Virus record (IMG/VR): IMGVR_UViG_2693429642_000010
Direction: 5' to 3' (one strand)
From: a virus
Lineage: Duplodnaviria; Heunggongvirae; Uroviricota; Caudoviricetes
DNA length: 7,431 bases
Within the stretch, counting starts at the first letter, position 1; every line of letters starts with the position of its first letter. Positions 635 to 7,431 of this stretch are shown here, piece by piece. Both the position numbers and the translations under genes were made by a program. Under the pieces are notes generated by a model that worked only from the letters and a program-made list of their open reading frames with translations, made no database searches and was not told where the DNA came from.

Positions 635-853
635 TCACAGTCCCCATTGTTTGTTCTTAAGTTCGATCTCCTCCTGGCAACTTGCACAAGTCCGACAACC
701 CTGAACGGCCAGGCGTCTTCGTTCATCTATCGGATCGCCACACTCACAACAATGAGTGGCAGATATAGCCTGGTGGTTCAGGCGGCGCATTTTTATTGCT
801 GTGTTGCGCTGTAATTCTTCAATTTCTGATGCTGAATCAATGATGTCTGCCAT
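635..853 (-). CDS. TraR/DksA-family C4 zinc-finger protein (72 aa), phage-encoded RNA polymerase secondary-channel binder class
   Basis: Translation contains CCECGDPIDERRRLAVQGCRTCASCQ, i.e. CxxC-(14-17)-CxxC with the GxPIxExRR signature of TraR-type proteins. Size and position in the delayed-early left arm fit lambdoid TraR homologs. Confidence 0.8.
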   Translation of the reverse strand: MADIIDSASEIEELQRNTAIKMRRLNHQAISATHCCECGDPIDERRRLAVQGCRTCASCQEEIELKNKQWGL

Positions 854-908
854 CTTTCATTAATCCCTGAATTGTTGGTTAATACGCTTGAGGGTGAATG
901 CGAATAAT

Positions 909-929
909 AAAAAAGGAGCCTGTAGCTCC
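909..929 (-). terminator. possible weak intrinsic terminator for leftward transcription
   Basis: On the minus strand GGAGC-UACAG-GCUCC (5-bp GC-rich stem, plus 915-929) is followed immediately by a U6 run (plus 909-914), just downstream of the orf61-type gene stop at 952. Stem is short, so strength is doubtful. Confidence 0.3.
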
Positions 930-951
930 ATGATGATTTTGTTTTTCATGT

Positions 952-1167
952 TCACCGTTCCTTAAAGACGCCGTTTAACATGCCGATCGCCAGGCTTAAA
1001 TGAGTCGGTGTGAATCCCATCAGCGTTACCGTTTCGCGGTGCTTCTTCAGTACGCTACGGCAAATGTCATCGACGTTTTTATCCGGAAACTGCTGTCTGG
1101 CTTTTTTGATTTCATAATTAGCCTGACGGGCAATACTGCGAAGGGCGTTTTCTTGCTGAGGTGTCAT
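952..1167 (-). CDS. hypothetical small protein (71 aa) in the lambda orf61 position
   Basis: Open frame 952-1233; the first 22 codons (MHFSGSGLHILCAYACRHGTCS) look non-coding and lack an RBS, so the internal ATG at 1167 (MTPQQENALRSIARQ...) is preferred. RBS is weak; start is uncertain. Confidence 0.5.
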   Translation of the reverse strand: MTPQQENALRSIARQANYEIKKARQQFPDKNVDDICRSVLKKHRETVTLMGFTPTHLSLAIGMLNGVFKER

Positions 1168-1243
1168 TGAACAAGTCCCATGTCGGCAAGCATAAGCACA
1201 CAGAATATGAAGCCCGCTGCCAGAAAAATGCATTCAGTGGTTG

Positions 1244-1435
1244 TCATACCTGGTCTCTCTCATCTGCTTCTGCTTTCGCCACCATCATTTCCAGCTTTTG
1301 TGAAAGGGATGTGGTTAACGTATGAAATTCTTCGTCTGTTTCTACTGGTATTGGCACAAACCTGACTCCAATTTGAGCGAGGCTATGTGCCATCTCGATA
1401 CTCGTTCTTAACTCAACGGGAGATGCTTTGTGCAT
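1244..1435 (-). CDS. small protein, lambda orf63-type (63 aa)
   Basis: 192-bp ORF with GAGGGG Shine-Dalgarno 4-8 nt upstream of the ATG at 1435. Overlaps the 3' end of the next gene by 28 nt, the same arrangement and length I recall for lambda orf63/orf60a. Confidence 0.6.
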   Translation of the reverse strand: MHKASPVELRTSIEMAHSLAQIGVRFVPIPVETDEEFHTLTTSLSQKLEMMVAKAEADERDQV

Positions 1436-1596
1436 ACAGCCCCTCGTTTATTATTTATCTCCTCAGCCAGCCGCTGGGCTTTCAGTGGATTTTGGATAAC
1501 AGAAAGGCCGGGAAATACCCAGCCTCGCTTTGTAACGGAGTAGACGAAAGTGATCGCGCCTACCCGGATATTATCGTGAGGATGCGTCATCGCCAT
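1408..1596 (-). CDS. small protein, lambda orf60a-type (62 aa)
   Basis: [35 protein letters not shown]... immediately downstream of exo on the same strand, overlapping the exo 3' end by 10 nt. Confidence 0.6.
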
Positions 1597-2267
1597 TGCT
1601 CCCCAAATACAAAACCAATTTCAGCCAGTGCCTCGTCCATTTTTTCGATGAACTCCGGCACCATCTCGTCAAAACTCGCCATGTACTTTTCATCCCGCTC
1701 AACCACGACATAATGCAGTCCTTCACGCTTCATACGCGGGTCATAGTTGGCAAAGTACCAGGCATCTTTTCGCGTCACCCACATGCTGTACTGCACCTGG
1801 GCCATGTAAGCCGACTTTATGGCCTCGAAACCACCGAGCCGGAACTTCATGAAATCCCGGGAGGTAAACGGGCATTTCAGCTCAAGGCCATTGCCGTCAC
1901 TGCATAAACCATCGGGAGAGCAGGCGGTGCGCATACTTTCGTCGCGATAGATGATCGGGGATTCAGTAACATTCACGCCGGAAGTGAATTCAAACAGGGT
2001 TCTGGCGTCGTTCTCGTACTGTTTTCCCCAGGCCAGCGCCTTAGCATTAACTTCCGGAGCCACACCGGTGCAAACCTCAGCCAGCAGGGTGTGGAAGTAG
2101 GACATTTTCATGTCAGGCCACTTCTTTCCTGAGCGGGGCTTTGCTATCACGTTGTGAACTTCTGAAGCGGTGATGACGCCGAGCCGTAATTTGTGCCATG
2201 CATCATCCCCCTGTTCGACAGCTCTCACGTCGATCCCGGTACGCTGCAGGATAATGTCCGGTGTCAT
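1587..2267 (-). CDS. exo: lambda-type exonuclease (Red alpha), 226 aa
   Basis: Translation [69 protein letters not shown]... matches my recollection of lambda Exo almost residue for residue. Same length (681 bp). Start overlaps the bet stop (ATGA at 2264-2267). Confidence 0.95.
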
Positions 2268-3049
2268 GCTGCCACCTTCTGCTCAGTGGCTTTCTGTTTC
2301 AGGAATCCAAGAGCTTTCACTGCTTCGGCCTGTGTCAGTTCTGACGATGCGCGAATGTCGCGGCGAAATATCTGGGAACAGAGCGGCAATAAGTCGTCAT
2401 CCCATGTTTTATCCCGGGCGATCAGCAGAGTGTTAATCTCCTGCATGGTTTCATCGTTAATCGGAGTGATGTCGCGTTCCGGCTGACGTTCTGCAGTGTA
2501 TGCGGTATTTTCGACAATGCGCTCGGCTTCATCCTTTTCATAGATACCAGCAAATCCGAAGGCCAGACGGGCACACTGAATCATGGCTTTATGCCGTAAC
2601 ATCCGTTTGGGATGCGACTGCCACGGTCCCGTGATTTCTCTGCCTTCGCGGGTTTTGAATGGTTCGCGGCGACATTCATCCATCCACTCGGTAACGCAGA
2701 TCGGATGATTGCGGTCCTTGCGGTAAATCCGGCATGTACAGGATTCATTGTCCTGCTCAAAGTCCATGCCATCAAACTGCTGGTTTTCATTGATGATGCG
2801 GGACCAGCCATCAACACCCACCACCGGAACGATGCCGTTCTGCTTATCAGGGAAGGCGTAAATTTCTTTCGTCCACGGATTAAGGCCGTACTGGTTGGCG
2901 ACGATCAACAATGCGATGAACTGCGCATCGCTGGCATCACCTTTAAATGCCGTCTGGCGAAGAGTGGTGATCAGTTCCTGTGGGTCGACAGAATCCATGC
3001 CGACACGTTCAGCCAGCTTCCCTGCCAGCGTTGCGAGTGCTGTACTCAT
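2264..3049 (-). CDS. bet: lambda-type single-strand annealing protein Beta (Red beta), 261 aa
   Basis: Translation [72 protein letters not shown]... matches lambda Bet as I recall it. 786 bp, as in lambda. Confidence 0.95.
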
Positions 3050-3054
3050 CCGTT

Positions 3055-3351
3055 TTATACCTCTGAATCAATATCAACCTGGTGGTGAGCAATGGTTTCA
3101 ACCATGTACCGGATGTGTTCTGCCATGCGCTCCTGAAACTCAACATCGTCATCAAACGCACGGGTAATGGCTTTTTTGCTGGCCCCGCAGCGTTGCAAAT
3201 GATCGATGCAGAGTGATTCAAACAGGTGCTGTGGAAGACCTTTTTCCATGTCGTCTGCCAGTTCTGACTCTTTCTCTTCACGGGCAATCTGCTGGTAGTG
3301 ACGTGCCCAGCTCAGAGCCTCAAGACGATCCTGAATGTAATAAGCGTTCAT
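3055..3351 (-). CDS. gam: RecBCD inhibitor Gam, short form only (98 aa)
   Basis: Translation [60 protein letters not shown]... matches lambda Gam from its internal Met onward. AGGAG Shine-Dalgarno 7 nt upstream (plus 3359-3363 reverse complement). In-frame stop upstream at 3406-3408 with no start codon between, so the long-form N-terminal extension is not encoded. Confidence 0.92.
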
Positions 3352-3426
3352 GGCTGAACTCCTGAAAATGGCTGTGAAAATATCGCCCGCGAAATGCCAG
3401 GCTGATTAGGAAAACAGGAAAGGGGA

Positions 3427-3633
3427 TTAGTGATTCAGGCCGTTACCGCGTCCGTCGAGAAAAACTTCCACGAGCAAATCACGGGTATAAGTGCGCTCGA
3501 TGCCGCGATGCAGATAAAGCCGTCCGCGTAAATTAGCTGATGCAGTCCAGGTACCATCTTTGTGTTTGACCAGCATTCCTGGCATGACCGCGCCGCGATT
3601 AACGGTCTGCGTTCCGTAATGTTGATGAACCAT
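3427..3633 (-). CDS. hypothetical small protein in the kil position (68 aa from the RBS-supported start; open frame extends to 3717 = 96 aa)
   Basis: ATG at 3633 has AGGAG 5 nt upstream (plus 3639-3643 reverse complement). The farther ATG at 3717 has only GAGG at 10 nt and adds a Pro/Gly-rich 28-aa extension. Sits immediately upstream of gam on the same strand, where lambdoid phages carry kil. No family recognised. Confidence 0.45.
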
Positions 3634-3904
3634 AAAAACTCCTGCCCGTAAGCTGGGCTGCTGAACATATAGAGACTTCTGCGCGTATTCAGGCGGTGGA
3701 TGGCCGCCGGTTGTCATAACTAAGCCGCCTCGTTGAAGCGACTAAGGTATGAAATGTTGAGTTGATTTCAGCTGGTCACACCGACGTTCACGCGTCCGTT
3801 TCACCCCTCGCACTCCCCGAAGCCTGCTGAAATTCAAACTGCGGATCTAAGCGGTCATCGCAACGGTGAATCAGGTAGTTGCCGTATCGTTGTGTTGTTG
3901 CGAT

Positions 3905-3990
3905 GAACCTATTTAAAACTATGGTTGTTTTATCGTCAACAACAAAAGTTGTTTTATTGGTTGTTTTAGATATAACTGGTTGTATTTAGG
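3905..3990 (-). promoter_or_regulatory. OL/pL-like leftward early promoter with operator repeats
   Basis: Minus strand reads TTGACG (-35, plus 3934-3939) - 16 nt - TTTAAA (-10, plus 3912-3917). Three TGGTTGT cores at 3922-3928, 3958-3964 and 3977-3983. The 17-mer AAAACTATGGTTGTTTT (3915-3931) lies between the -35 and -10 and is the exact reverse complement of a 17-mer at 4974-4990. Confidence 0.55.
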
Positions 3991-4080
3991 ATGGATTTAT
4001 TTTGTGACTTGAATCGCATAGCGATAACTGAAGCGAGGTTATGGTGGTTTTTTTAACGGTGTGTGTGATGAGGGGAGGGC

Positions 4081-4107
4081 AAAAGAAAACCCGGCACGGT
4101 GACCGGG
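4081..4107 (-). terminator. intrinsic terminator downstream of the repressor gene (t-imm-like)
   Basis: On the minus strand CCCGG-UCACCGUG-CCGGG (5-bp all-GC stem, plus 4090-4107) is followed by UUUUCUUUU (plus 4081-4089), about 120 nt past the repressor stop at 4229. Confidence 0.55.
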
Positions 4108-4228
4108 ATTCTTACGCCGTTAGGTAAAGATATTATTGCGGTGGCTTAATATTACTACCTAGAGCAAAGATAGGAATTAGTTCTTTACTGAATGAGCACA
4201 ATGCCCAGTTGATAATTTTTAATTGGTA

Positions 4229-4918
4229 CTACCCATGCTTCCTATATGTCTGCGGCATGCTCCCAATAACCTTACCGAAGATGAACACCCGGTTCATCTC
4301 GTCTTTCTCGATCGGGTCCCACGGTGAGTAGCTTTTGTTATCAGAGATGACCAGCAGCTTATCCTTCATCATTTGCAGGCGCTTTACATGGGCTGTGTCG
4401 TCGTACAGAAACGCATAGATACCATCACCGTCGAAAGATTTAACTGTGATATCAACGAACAGCAGATCACCTGGTTCGATCGTTCCTGACATGCTGTCAC
4501 CACGCACGTTAATGATGCGGATATTTTCCGCCTTCCTACCATCGAACATGTGACGAGCATCGTCAAACGAGTACTCAACCGAGCGTAGAACTTCTACAAA
4601 CTCACGGTTGATGACTCCCGGCCCAGCACTGACTTCTATATCAAGAACGTCAATCTTGAAGTATTTGGAATGGCTGACAGTTGATTGTATTGGTTGCACT
4701 ATACTGTCTGACATATTTCCAACGCCAGAAGATAACCATTCTGCGCGCACACCCAAAGCGTTCGCGATCTCCACGATTTTAGTTGTTTGATTAGCTTTCC
4801 CTGTTTCGATTTTCTGAATAGCAGCCTGGCTAACCCCGACCAAATCCCCAAGCGCCTTTTGTGTAAGGCCTCGCGCTAATCTGGCTTCTTTAAGTCTTTC
4901 TGAGAGTGTTGTTTTCAT
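4229..4918 (-). CDS. CI-type prophage repressor: N-terminal XRE-family HTH plus C-terminal S24 (LexA-like) autopeptidase domain, 229 aa
   Basis: MKTTLSERLKEARLARGLTQKALGDLVGVSQAAIQKIETGK... is a classic XRE helix-turn-helix. The C-terminal part has a candidate Ala-Gly autocleavage site (VSAGPG), the serine motif GDSMSG and the lysine motif HVKRL as in LexA/CI. Start at 4918 preferred over the upstream ATG at 4984, whose 22-codon extension has no RBS and would run through the operator region. Not lambda cI itself. Confidence 0.85.
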   Translation of the reverse strand: MKTTLSERLKEARLARGLTQKALGDLVGVSQAAIQKIETGKANQTTKIVEIANALGVRAEWLSSGVGNMSDSIVQPIQSTVSHSKYFKIDVLDIEVSAGPGVINREFVEVLRSVEYSFDDARHMFDGRKAENIRIINVRGDSMSGTIEPGDLLFVDITVKSFDGDGIYAFLYDDTAHVKRLQMMKDKLLVISDNKSYSPWDPIEKDEMNRVFIFGKVIGSMPQTYRKHG

Positions 4919-4924
4919 AGTCCA

Positions 4925-4995
4925 AATGTACAACCAAGGTTTTATTCCATCAAACGAAAATGGTTGTTGATTAAAAACAACCATAGTTTTAATCT
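4925..4995. promoter_or_regulatory. OR-like region with divergent pRM-like (leftward) and pR-like (rightward) promoters and three operator cores
   Basis: Cores: ACAACCA 4930-4936, TGGTTGT 4961-4967, ACAACCA 4977-4983. Rightward: TTGATT (4967-4972) - 15 nt - TTTAAT (4988-4993), with 17-mer AAAACAACCATAGTTTT (4974-4990) between them. Leftward: TTGATG (minus strand, plus 4948-4953) - 17 nt - TACATT (plus 4925-4930), ending 6 nt before the repressor ATG. Confidence 0.55.
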
Positions 4996-5022
4996 TGATT
5001 CAAATTAACCACGGAGGTTGTT

Positions 5023-5253
5023 ATGAACCCAGCTATCAAAACAGCGATCAATATCGTTGGTTCACAAAAGAAACTGGGCGCTGCTTGCGAAGTTTCACAG
5101 CAGGCCGTCTATAAGTGGCTTCACAACAAAGCAAAGGTATCCCCTGAACATGTCGGCAGCATTGTTACGGCTACTGGTGGAGTAGTGAAGGCATACCAGA
5201 TTCGCCCGGATCTTCCGGAGTTGTTTCCACACACCGAAAAGAACGCAGCTTAA
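5023..5253 (+). CDS. Cro-like small HTH regulator (76 aa), YdaS-type Cro analog
   Basis: GGAGG Shine-Dalgarno at 5013-5017, 5 nt before the ATG. Small basic protein with an HTH-like segment (QKKLGAACEVSQQAVYKWLHNK). Divergent from the repressor across the operator region. Not lambda Cro. Confidence 0.8.
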   Translation: MNPAIKTAINIVGSQKKLGAACEVSQQAVYKWLHNKAKVSPEHVGSIVTATGGVVKAYQIRPDLPELFPHTEKNAA

Positions 5254-5322
5254 ATTTCCATTTCACGCTCTTTAACAATAAGCAATCAACTTAACAGTCA
5301 ATTCAAACTAAAGGAGTCAATT

Positions 5323-5481
5323 ATGCAACCACTTACATACCAACAGACTAGCGGATTTAGCCCGACTGCGGTGATAAATCGTTCTCAAACAAAACAGGCG
5401 CCAGGCCACGAAAAATCCGTGATGCCGTTCGCGCCTGGTCGGCTGCAGATAATCAGGATGTTGTTGCCGCACTCATTGTGA
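5323..5481 (+). CDS. upstream ORF (52 aa), probably the frame-shifted N-terminal portion of the cII-position gene
   Basis: ATG at 5323 with a near-ideal AAGGAG Shine-Dalgarno (5311-5316) at 6 nt spacing. Reading frame stays open to TGA 5479-5481 and overlaps the alternative frame (open from 5361) for about 118 nt. Confidence 0.4.
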   Translation: MQPLTYQQTSGFSPTAVINRSQTKQAPGHEKSVMPFAPGRLQIIRMLLPHSL

Positions 5482-5861
5482 ATGAGTATCGGGAGCAGGG
5501 CGGCGGCACCATCGATTTCCCTGATGATGTCAGCCGTGCACGCCAGAAGCTGTTCCGCTTCCTCGATAACAAATTCGATTCTGAAAAATACCGAAATAAC
5601 GTGCGTGAACTGACCCCGGCAATTCTGGCGGTACTACCGCTGGAATATCGCGGCCACCTGGTTGAGCAGGATAGCTTCATGGCTCGGCTGGCTGAAATGG
5701 AAAAGGAACTCAGTGAGGCAAAGCAGGCGGTCATTCTCAACGCACCACGCCACCAGAAACTGAAGGAGATGAGTGAAGGCATTGTGTCGATGTTTCGTGT
5801 GGACCCGGATCTGGCTGGTCCATTAATGGCGATGGTTACCACCATGCTGGGGGCAATATGA
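5478..5861 (+). CDS. cII-position regulator, possibly YdaT-like (CII functional analog); C-terminal frame as called, 127 aa from GTG
   Basis: Long ORF ending in an ATGA overlap with the alternative O start at 5858. Its GTG start at 5478 has no Shine-Dalgarno and overlaps the upstream ORF stop (GTGA), and the frame is open back to 5361. Family assignment is from recollection and needs a profile search. Confidence 0.55.
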   Translation: MNEYREQGGGTIDFPDDVSRARQKLFRFLDNKFDSEKYRNNVRELTPAILAVLPLEYRGHLVEQDSFMARLAEMEKELSEAKQAVILNAPRHQKLKEMSEGIVSMFRVDPDLAGPLMAMVTTMLGAI

Positions 5862-5947
5862 CAGGTTCAGAAATGGCGAAAGCCGGTCTGCGGGAACAGA
5901 GCCGACTTTCAGGTGCAAATCGTAACGCACTCATTGCGGAAGGAATT

Positions 5948-6877
5948 ATGGCAAACACTGCTGAGATATTCAATTTTCCAGTGCCGGATGAGGCACAAAA
6001 GGAGCCGCGCGTGGCAGATCTCGATGATGGTTATACGCGCATTGCAAATGAGTTGCTGGAAGCTGTGATGCTGGCCGGATTAACACAGTACCAGCTTCTG
6101 GTCTTCCTGGCTGTCATGCGCAAAACATATGGCTTTAATAAAAAACTGGATTGGGTGAGCAACGAGCAACTTTCCGAGTTGACCGGGATATTGCCGCACA
6201 AGTGTTCTGCTGCAAAAAGTGTTCTGGTAAAGCGTGGGATTTTTATTCAGAGCGGGCGGAATATCGGCATTAATAATGTGGTCAGTGAATGGTCAACATT
6301 ACCCGAATCAGGTAAGAAAAATAAAGTTTACCTGAAAGAGGTAAATTTACCTGAATCAGGTAAGAAAAGTTTACCCAAATCAGGTAAAGACGTTTACCCG
6401 AATCAGGTAAACACAAAAGACAAACTAACAAAAGACAATATAAAACCTTTTTCGTCCGAGAATTCTGGCGAATCCTCTGACCAGTCAGAAAACGATCTTC
6501 CTGTGGTGAAACCGGATGCTGCAATTCAGAGCGGCAGCAAGTGGGGGACAGCAGAAGACCTGACCGCCGCAGAGTGGATGTTTGACATGGTGAAGACCAT
6601 CGCGCCATCAGCCAGAAAACCGAATTTTGCAGGGTGGGCTAACGATATCCGCCTGATGCGTGAACGTGACGGACGTAACCACCGCGACATGTGTGTACTG
6701 TTCCGCTGGGCATGCCAGGACAACTTCTGGTCCGGTAACGTGCTAAGTCCGGCCAAACTCCGCGACAAGTGGACCCAACTCGAAATCAACCGTAACAAGC
6801 AACAGGCTGGCGTGACAGCTAGCAAACCAAAACTCGACCTGACAAACACTGACTGGATTTACGGGGTGGATCTATGA
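5948..6877 (+). CDS. O: replication initiator protein O (309 aa from this start; alternative start at 5858 gives 339 aa)
   Basis: From MANTAEIFNFPVPDEAQKEPRVADLDDGY... the N-terminus aligns with the lambda O N-terminus as I recall it (MTNTAKILNF...NVADLDDGY...LRKTYG). C-terminal third (...FDMVKTIAPSARKPNFAGWANDIRLMRERDG...TDWIYGVDL) looks lambda-type. Iterons lie inside the gene. Stop overlaps the P start (ATGA at 6874-6877). Confidence 0.9.
   Translation: MANTAEIFNFPVPDEAQKEPRVADLDDGYTRIANELLEAVMLAGLTQYQLLVFLAVMRKTYGFNKKLDWVSNEQLSELTGILPHKCSAAKSVLVKRGIFIQSGRNIGINNVVSEWSTLPESGKKNKVYLKEVNLPESGKKSLPKSGKDVYPNQVNTKDKLTKDNIKPFSSENSGESSDQSENDLPVVKPDAAIQSGSKWGTAEDLTAAEWMFDMVKTIAPSARKPNFAGWANDIRLMRERDGRNHRDMCVLFRWACQDNFWSGNVLSPAKLRDKWTQLEINRNKQQAGVTASKPKLDLTNTDWIYGVDL
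6299..6412 (+). repeat. replication origin iterons (O-binding sites) inside gene O, followed by an A-rich region (6413-6452)
   Basis: Five copies of an approximately 19-bp unit TTACCyGAATCAGGTAAr starting at 6299, 6328 (degenerate), 6347, 6371 and 6394, each with dyad ends TTACC...GGTAA. They encode the repeated peptide PESGKK / PKSGK. Followed by ACACAAAAGACAAACTAACAAAAGACAATATAAAACC. Confidence 0.85.
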
Positions 6878-7431
6878 AAAACATCGCCGCACAGATGGTT
6901 AACTTTGACCGTGAGCAGATGCGTCGGATCGCCAACAATATGCCGGAACAGTACGACGAAAAGCCGCAGGTACAACAGGTAGCGCAGATCATCAATGGTG
7001 TGTTCAGCCAGTTACTGGCAACTTTCCCGGCGAGCCTGGCTAACCGGGACCAGAACGAACTGAACGAAATTCGCCGCCAGTGGGTGCTGGCTTTCCGGAA
7101 AAACGGGATCACCACAATGGAACAGGTTAACGCAGGAATGCGCGTAGCCCGTCGGCAGAATCGACCATTCCTGCCATCACCCGGGCAGTTTGTTGCATGG
7201 TGCCGTGAAGAAGCATCCGTTATTGCCGGACTGCCAAACGCCAGCGAGCTGGTTGATATGGTTTACGAGTATTGCCGGAAGCGTGGCCTGTATCCGGATG
7301 CAGAGTCTTATCCGTGGAAATCAAACGCGCACTACTGGCTGGTTACTAGCCTGTACCAGAATATGCGGGCCAATGCGCTTACTGATACGGAATTACGGCG
7401 CAAGGCTGCCGATGAACTGACTTGTATGACC
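6874..7431 (+). CDS. P: replication protein P (helicase loader), lambda type, 5' partial (186 codons, continues past window end)
   Basis: Translation MKNIAAQMVNFDREQMRRIANNMPEQYDEKPQVQQVAQIINGVFSQLLATFPASLANRDQNE... matches lambda P as I recall it. No stop before the window end. Confidence 0.95.
   Translation, partial: MKNIAAQMVNFDREQMRRIANNMPEQYDEKPQVQQVAQIINGVFSQLLATFPASLANRDQNELNEIRRQWVLAFRKNGITTMEQVNAGMRVARRQNRPFLPSPGQFVAWCREEASVIAGLPNASELVDMVYEYCRKRGLYPDAESYPWKSNAHYWLVTSLYQNMRANALTDTELRRKAADELTCMT

Follow-up and report, generated by a model that had tools for sequence, protein, structure and literature searches.

What occupies the cII slot of this prophage, where one gene appears to be split across two reading frames at a run of five A's (A5)? 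The original prediction offered three options: a pseudogene, a gene decoded by low-level frameshifting, or a homopolymer error. The window (the whole stretch of DNA that was analysed, 7,431 nt) covers the immunity region of a lambdoid prophage of E. coli, to the left of which lie exo, bet, gam and kil. We find that the split gene very probably carries a real, heritable one-base deletion (A6 to A5) in a YdaT-family gene, and is an inherited pseudogene in a decaying prophage.

The arrangement of the two frames is as first described. The ATG at 5323 is well signalled, as AAGGAG ends 6 nt before it, and its frame runs for 52 codons (MQPLTYQQTSGFSPTAVINRSQTKQAPGHEKSVMPFAPGRLQIIRMLLPHSL) to a TGA stop at 5479-5481. 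In the -1 frame, a TAG at 5358-5360 is followed by an open stretch that begins at 5361 and ends with the TGA at 5859-5861. This frame offers no start codon before the GTG at 5478, which is preceded by a stretch (5460-5477, gttgttgccgcactcatt) that contains no GGAG-like motif, and the GTG overlaps the upstream stop as GTGA (5478-5481). Both frames meet at GAAAAAT (5410-5416), where the original prediction proposed that they could be joined. Adding one A at this point yields the 179-aa protein of thousands of relatives, residue for residue except for known polymorphisms; the 540-nt ORF of the relatives reads ...PGHEK-IRDAVRAWS..., which is the proposed fusion. The pairing of the two ORFs is thus not due to chance. 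The features of the locus are listed in the table.

Table. Features of the split gene and its neighbours, in window numbering.
Feature	Positions	Strand	Basis
Shine-Dalgarno AAGGAG of the ydaT-family (cII-slot) gene	5311..5316	+	Read directly; same in intact relatives
Authentic 5' part, codons 1-31 (MQPLTYQQTSGFSPTAVINRSQTKQAPGHEK), A-run included	5323..5415	+	Matches residues 1-31 of intact 179-aa proteins
A5 run that has lost one A (A6 in relatives)	5411..5415	+	Alignment
Out-of-frame tail of the 52-codon ORF (SVMPFAPGRLQIIRMLLPHSL, then stop)	5416..5481	+	Translation
Authentic 3' part in the -1 frame, residues I32-I179 and TGA	5415..5861	+	Translation
GTG overlapping the upstream stop (GTGA), sole possible restart codon	5478..5480	+	V53 of the intact protein
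Replication gene O, 339 aa	5858..6877	+	Pfam Phage_rep_O, 115 bits; annotated "replication protein"
Cro-like/YdaS-family gene, 76 aa	5023..5253	+	Pfam YdaS_toxin, 62 bits; weaker P22_Cro match
CI-like repressor (HTH and S24 peptidase), annotated at 251 aa	4229..4984	-	Pfam HTH_3 and Peptidase_S24

In the alignment, the stretch equivalent to 5416..5481 is read by the relatives in the other frame, and the authentic 3' part (5415..5861) carries the whole Pfam YdaT_toxin match together with the predicted tetramerisation helix. The YdaT reading frame is interrupted, with the break at 5411-5415 and the stop at 5479-5481. As the frame is broken, the region is a YdaT-family pseudogene and not a functional member of the family.

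The family was identified with profile searches and sequence searches of the PDB. The original prediction had suggested comparing the fused protein with the 127-aa downstream product, and both match Pfam YdaT_toxin (PF06254, cut-off 21 bits) at about 104 bits: the rejoined 179-aa protein scores 103.7 bits (E 7e-30) over residues 67-154, and the 127-aa ORF scores 104.6 bits. A Pfam search with the 52-aa product returned no match. Against the PDB, the rejoined protein aligned (phmmer) with 8bt1 over residues 28-107 (E 2.4e-4) and with 3c4r over residues 29-126 (E 6.5e-4), which points to a POU-like HTH domain at the N-terminus, homologous to that of the solved YdaT structures. The position is also that of a YdaT gene, 3' of a YdaS/Cro-like gene, divergent from a CI-like repressor, and 5' of O. 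Because of the PF06254 match, the alignments to 8bt1 and 3c4r, and the YdaS-family and O-family neighbours, we assign the cII-slot region, as judged from sequence, to a single YdaT-family gene.

YdaT has been shown experimentally to be the equivalent of CII in CP-933P and Rac, where it is a tetrameric DNA-binding regulator that acts like lambda CII (PMC8630535, PMC9986795, PMC11879457); tetramer formation, operator binding and the activation of repressor transcription are known from these two proteins. Members of the family fill the role of lambda cII in many lambdoid phages. The slot in the window is like that of lambda CII (after cro and before O), and the role, establishing repressor synthesis, is presumed to be the same, whereas the YdaT fold differs from that of lambda CII and combines a POU-like HTH domain with a four-helix-bundle tetramer (PMC9986795). 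None of the three products (52, 127 and 179 aa) had a Pfam match to Phage_CII at E <= 0.1, so "cII" is here a positional or functional label only. The CP-933P YdaT (PDB 8BT1), its homologue PDB 3C4R and the Rac YdaT of E. coli K-12 belong to the same Pfam family as the window gene, and CP-933P and Rac share with the window the ydaS-ydaT order next to a CI-like repressor. CP-933P YdaT and the window protein have about 28 identical residues among 80 aligned positions, from alpha1 to alpha4. Compared with the CP-933P/Rac type, the subfamily of the window is extended at both ends, by about 28 residues at the N-terminus and by a longer C-terminus, for a total of 179 versus 141 aa.

Counting the A-run in related prophages, the check proposed with the original prediction, showed A6 and one 179-aa ORF in nearly all of them. 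Where the window has A5, two aligned relatives have A6. Searches of complete E. coli genomes with exact 30-mers found 2126 with A6, four with A5 and none with A7. The extra base is present in all 16 isolated phages, in which the gene is mostly named cII or "CII-like" and in a few records is left as a hypothetical protein. Among the IMG/VR matches listed, 118 of 120 contigs have A6 and two have A5, and 73 of 74 metagenome contigs have A6 and one has A5. The A5/A6/A7 site was absent from a one-genome-per-species scan (GTDB representatives). Altogether, 174 of the 186 full-length copies retrieved are intact 179-codon ORFs. The intact "cII" genes of coliphages and prophages, such as WP_001182879.1 (Rb-50) and those of phages PhiR47_2, 4A7, D2 and Perceval, share 96-98% nucleotide identity with the window and have the same start, O-overlapping stop and position; they have A6 and a single ORF, whereas the window has A5 and a split gene. 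Among the related prophages, we found no intact one that combines A5 with an independently initiated downstream protein, and no conserved separate 52-aa gene.

A5 occurs in the complete genomes of BCE049, from a cow in China, of A3 and A26, from Australian wildlife, and of H22, from a human in the Czech Republic; among the IMG/VR matches listed, it occurs in contigs L057 and L120. All six are identical to the window over the 539 nt of the gene, and the nearest A6 alleles (Rb-50, L074 and L165) are four substitutions away from this haplotype. In a search with 2 kb, the A5 genomes were the four closest to the window (99.5-99.6%), and the next best (98.6%) has A6. Outside the gene the A5 copies have diverged. 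The window differs from A3/A26 at 45 sites, mostly in P (99.4% identity), and from BCE049 at 114 aligned sites over 674-7431. The best matches to the entire window are L120, which is exactly identical over 2133-7324, and A3/A26, and no retrieved record is 100% identical throughout. As these copies are identical in the gene yet have diverged in the flanks, the A5 allele predates the diversification of the flanks. Intact orthologues exist, and the lesion is derived and common by descent; in total, the A5 allele occurs in at least seven independent assemblies.

RefSeq/PGAP has flagged the gene as "frameshifted" in BCE049, A3, A26 and H22, and in BCE049 the label is "toxin YdaT domain-containing protein; frameshifted" at exactly equivalent coordinates. 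These pseudogenes (FQU84_RS12175 in BCE049, AOY54_RS09615 in A3, AOY79_RS13285 in A26 and P5708_RS14325 in H22) have the identical 539 nt with A5, the same neighbours (XRE/S24 repressor, YdaS-like Cro, O and P) and the same annotated boundaries as the window, from which their genomes differ at 45-114 flanking sites. The lesion is thus already known, as RefSeq annotates a frameshifted gene of a characterised family. We also considered the substitutions V26A, E42A and T50A (relative to O157-type alleles) as decay that followed inactivation, and rejected this because the intact Rb-50 allele has all three.

The element that carries the A5 allele is itself degraded in the sister genomes, where other disabling lesions were found. 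In BCE049 it is a remnant that sits between icd and a partial icd copy. The reading frame of quuD, the Q-like antiterminator gene, is interrupted by a stop codon. The holin gene essD lies immediately next to gpJ, and the annotation shows no terminase, portal, capsid or tail-tube genes between the two. In A3, A26 and H22 it is the integrase gene that contains an internal stop. Within the 7.4-kb window all other genes are open, and the sister genomes suggest that the window's own prophage is decayed outside these 7.4 kb. The A5 lesion is routine prophage decay.

The consequences for the protein can be read from the alignment with CP-933P YdaT, in which the POU-like HTH domain (alpha1 to alpha5, residues about 3-90, with alpha2 at Glu21-Glu34) is followed by the tetramerising helix alpha6 (PMC9986795). 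In the phmmer alignment, H29-E30-K31-I32-R33 are opposite H5-E6-H7-I8-R9 of CP-933P YdaT (8bt1). Combined with the published helix limits, this puts the frameshift at the very start of alpha1. The one-base deletion at codon 31/32 has shortened A6 to A5, and ribosomes starting at ATG 5323 would add 31 correct residues and 21 out-of-frame ones before stopping at 5479-5481. By the alignment, the 52-aa product is confined to the N-terminal extension specific to the subfamily and includes no part of the fold. The remaining 148 codons would be left untranslated, and with them the tetramerisation helix and nearly the whole DNA-binding domain. Small amounts of product could still arise by spontaneous -1 slippage or by inefficient restart at GTGA. 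Thus, we infer that the YdaT regulator is lost or nearly lost.

A function of the cII type would be needed only to establish lysogeny after infection and would be dispensable in a resident prophage. Loss of YdaT is therefore tolerated in a resident, already defective prophage, which need not establish lysogeny. Rac YdaT is toxic when expressed (PMC11879457), and this toxicity together with the dispensability means that the loss may be neutral or mildly favourable. The ATG of O overlaps the ydaT stop as ATGA (5858-5861), and the early stop would break this coupling of ydaT to O, so that expression of O and P may drop. An independent inactivating allele, in which W39 is changed from TGG to TGA, was found on metagenome contigs L151, L154, L164 and L205. 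These contigs have another haplotype with the A6 run intact, and the allele was not found in any complete E. coli genome. As the W39 stop is on a separate haplotype, YdaT appears to have been lost in resident prophages more than once.

The original prediction also raised termination-reinitiation at GTGA (5478-5481), which could yield a 127-aa YdaT with some activity, for example as a tetramer-poisoning or otherwise altered regulator. The stop and start codons do overlap, the upstream ORF is well translated, and the downstream frame is undamaged in all A5 copies. The 127-aa product holds the whole YdaT_toxin match (104.6 bits), and by alignment it retains the recognition helix alpha3 and the tetramerisation helix alpha6. 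However, the full Pfam match is explained by the profile, which begins after alpha2. The GTG corresponds to V53, opposite T29 of CP-933P YdaT and in the middle of alpha2 (phmmer alignment and the helix limits of PMC9986795), and a restart product would keep alpha3 to alpha6 and be without alpha1 and about two thirds of alpha2. Alpha2 is the first helix of the HTH, and its N-terminus contacts DNA (PMC9986795). A compact POU-like domain truncated in this way is unlikely to fold, and the 127-aa product probably does not form a working DNA-binding domain. In addition, the GTG has no Shine-Dalgarno sequence and is an internal valine codon in intact relatives. An active restart product is thus very unlikely.

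A related reading is that the A5 allele has been retained for a useful product, either the 127-aa YdaT made via GTGA or a trickle of full-length protein made by slippage. If so, the 127-aa product could act on related phages that enter the cell by poisoning or retuning their YdaT, or could avoid the toxicity of YdaT while translation of O stays coupled. The point that weighs against simple decay is that the downstream 148 codons have no further disabling mutation in any A5 copy, which indicates that the lesion is recent or that the remnant is still under some constraint. The undamaged codons are compatible with a retained product and equally with a recent lesion, and we regard retention for such a product as highly improbable.

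A homopolymer error, with a true genome that has A6 and an intact gene, was the explanation for which inspection of the A-run had been advised. Single-base undercalls in A-runs are a common long-read artefact, and BCE049 has other genes nearby that are flagged as "frameshifted," for example ycgN. The lone metagenome contig with A5 (L199) has a different haplotype, 2x coverage and many indels; its A5 is either an independent event or an error, and it may well be the latter. However, the window shares its A5 with four complete genomes, which come from three countries, and, among the matches listed, with two IMG/VR contigs, and all haplotype-matched A5 copies are on one haplotype that is identical over 539 nt. 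Across the other haplotypes (about 2120 genomes) A5 does not occur, and no genome has A7, whereas a random error would not track a haplotype. As A5 tracks one haplotype and persists through the divergence of the flanks, it is an inherited mutation and not a random homopolymer error, which is extremely improbable here.

Recoding at the A-run, by -1 ribosomal frameshifting or by transcriptional slippage, would supply a useful dose of 179-aa YdaT beside a 52-aa peptide. In its favour, the Lys-tRNA on AAA 5413-5415 re-pairs perfectly one base back (5412-5414), with AUC as the next codon; a one-base slip gives exactly the wild-type ...HEK-IRD... junction, and the upstream ORF has a strong Shine-Dalgarno sequence. 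The A-rich run at the junction of overlapping frames also resembles the programmed -1 frameshifting of dnaX and IS transposases. Unlike those systems, the window has a layout that is not conserved, a heptamer that is out of phase and no stimulator. More than 99% of the homologues, including all isolated phages, have a single A6 ORF in place of the two frames. In the zero frame the codons are CAC GAA AAA UCC, a phase that does not allow a tandem X XXY YYZ slip; the P-site Glu-tRNA would need to re-pair on CGA, and only slippage of a single tRNA is possible. No SD-like (GGAG-like) stimulator was found in 5390-5409, and the downstream region (5416-5500) has an unremarkable fold (z = -1.15), which is matched by 25 of 200 shuffles. 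A run of five A's is too short for appreciable slippage by RNA polymerase. Programmed frameshifts are annotated in neighbouring loci (IS1, IS1203 and IS2), and these are conserved features of their families, unlike the arrangement in the window. Any rescue by slippage is expected to be incidental and small, and recoding as the function of this site is barely credible. Of the three options first offered, the evidence favours the pseudogene over homopolymer error and programmed frameshifting.

With the locus read as an inherited pseudogene, its correct annotation is a frameshifted ydaT (cII-analogue) pseudogene, and not a pair of 52-aa and 127-aa genes or a recoding site. The A5 allele amounts to a natural knock-out of a regulator, and relatives of this regulator are toxic upon expression. 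According to a 2025 study, the Rac copy of ydaT "remains unmutated" (PMC11879457), and the alleles described here indicate that mutated ydaT alleles exist in prophage lineages other than Rac. The A5/A6 pair is also a ready-made isogenic contrast for the function of the 179-aa YdaT subfamily in plaque-forming phages with an unbroken copy of the gene.

The annotated start of the neighbouring CI-like repressor (4984) is probably too far upstream, and the true start is likely ATG 4918. We doubt the annotated start because relatives are shorter, being annotated at 229 aa (690 nt) from ATG 4918 (MKTTLSERL...), because the 22-codon extension (4919-4984, minus strand) overlaps ACAACCA/TGGTTGT repeats (region 4925-5027) that look like OR operators, and because cI and cro would be separated by only 38 nt if the long form were correct. 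A palindrome, TGGTTGTTGATTAAAAACAACCA, is located at 4961-4983 inside the extension. The CP-933P YdaT operator (TTGATTN6AATCAA) is absent from the cro-ydaT spacer, where the best match has three mismatches. Matches with two mismatches occur at 4967-4984 (the end of the annotated repressor ORF) and at 4995-5012 (the cI-cro spacer), and these are more likely CI/Cro operators. The cro-ydaT spacer (5258-5322) contains an imperfect direct repeat, TTAACAATAAGCAAT / TTAACAGTCAAT, around 5272-5306. Rfam searches at the gathering threshold gave no match anywhere in the window.

Several of the elements related to the window have further features. A 44.8-kb circular lambdoid element carries an intact copy of the gene and near-complete head, tail and lysis (morphogenesis) genes. 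This element is NZ_CP172337.1 (L011; 44,831 bp), filed as plasmid pCE-O153H30-A, and it encodes an integrase, an immunity region with intact ydaT, O, P, Q and lysis genes, as well as terminase, capsid, a contractile tail module, Avs2 and iss. Rather than a plasmid, it is probably a prophage that has been excised or is replicating. The BCE049 remnant is located within L008 (BCE049 2110000-2150000) and L001 (8567-12475), and its cargo includes an inverse autotransporter of 1302 aa, encoded immediately downstream of P, along with an alpha/beta hydrolase, an OmpC-like porin and sitABCD. In L120, a 5-base deletion and a cluster of mismatches lie inside exo, at the equivalent of window positions 1789-1793; this would be a further frameshifting lesion or an assembly fault.

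Between kil and the repressor, the window has about 590 nt (3634-4228) with no ORF of at least 60 aa on either strand and no RefSeq annotation. In lambda, N and nutL occupy this place. In related isolated phages the region has 88-99% identity and is labelled "hypothetical protein," Kil or GevA, and some relatives have accessory genes inserted at the equivalent position, including a Panacea-domain protein and, in A36, two hypothetical proteins.
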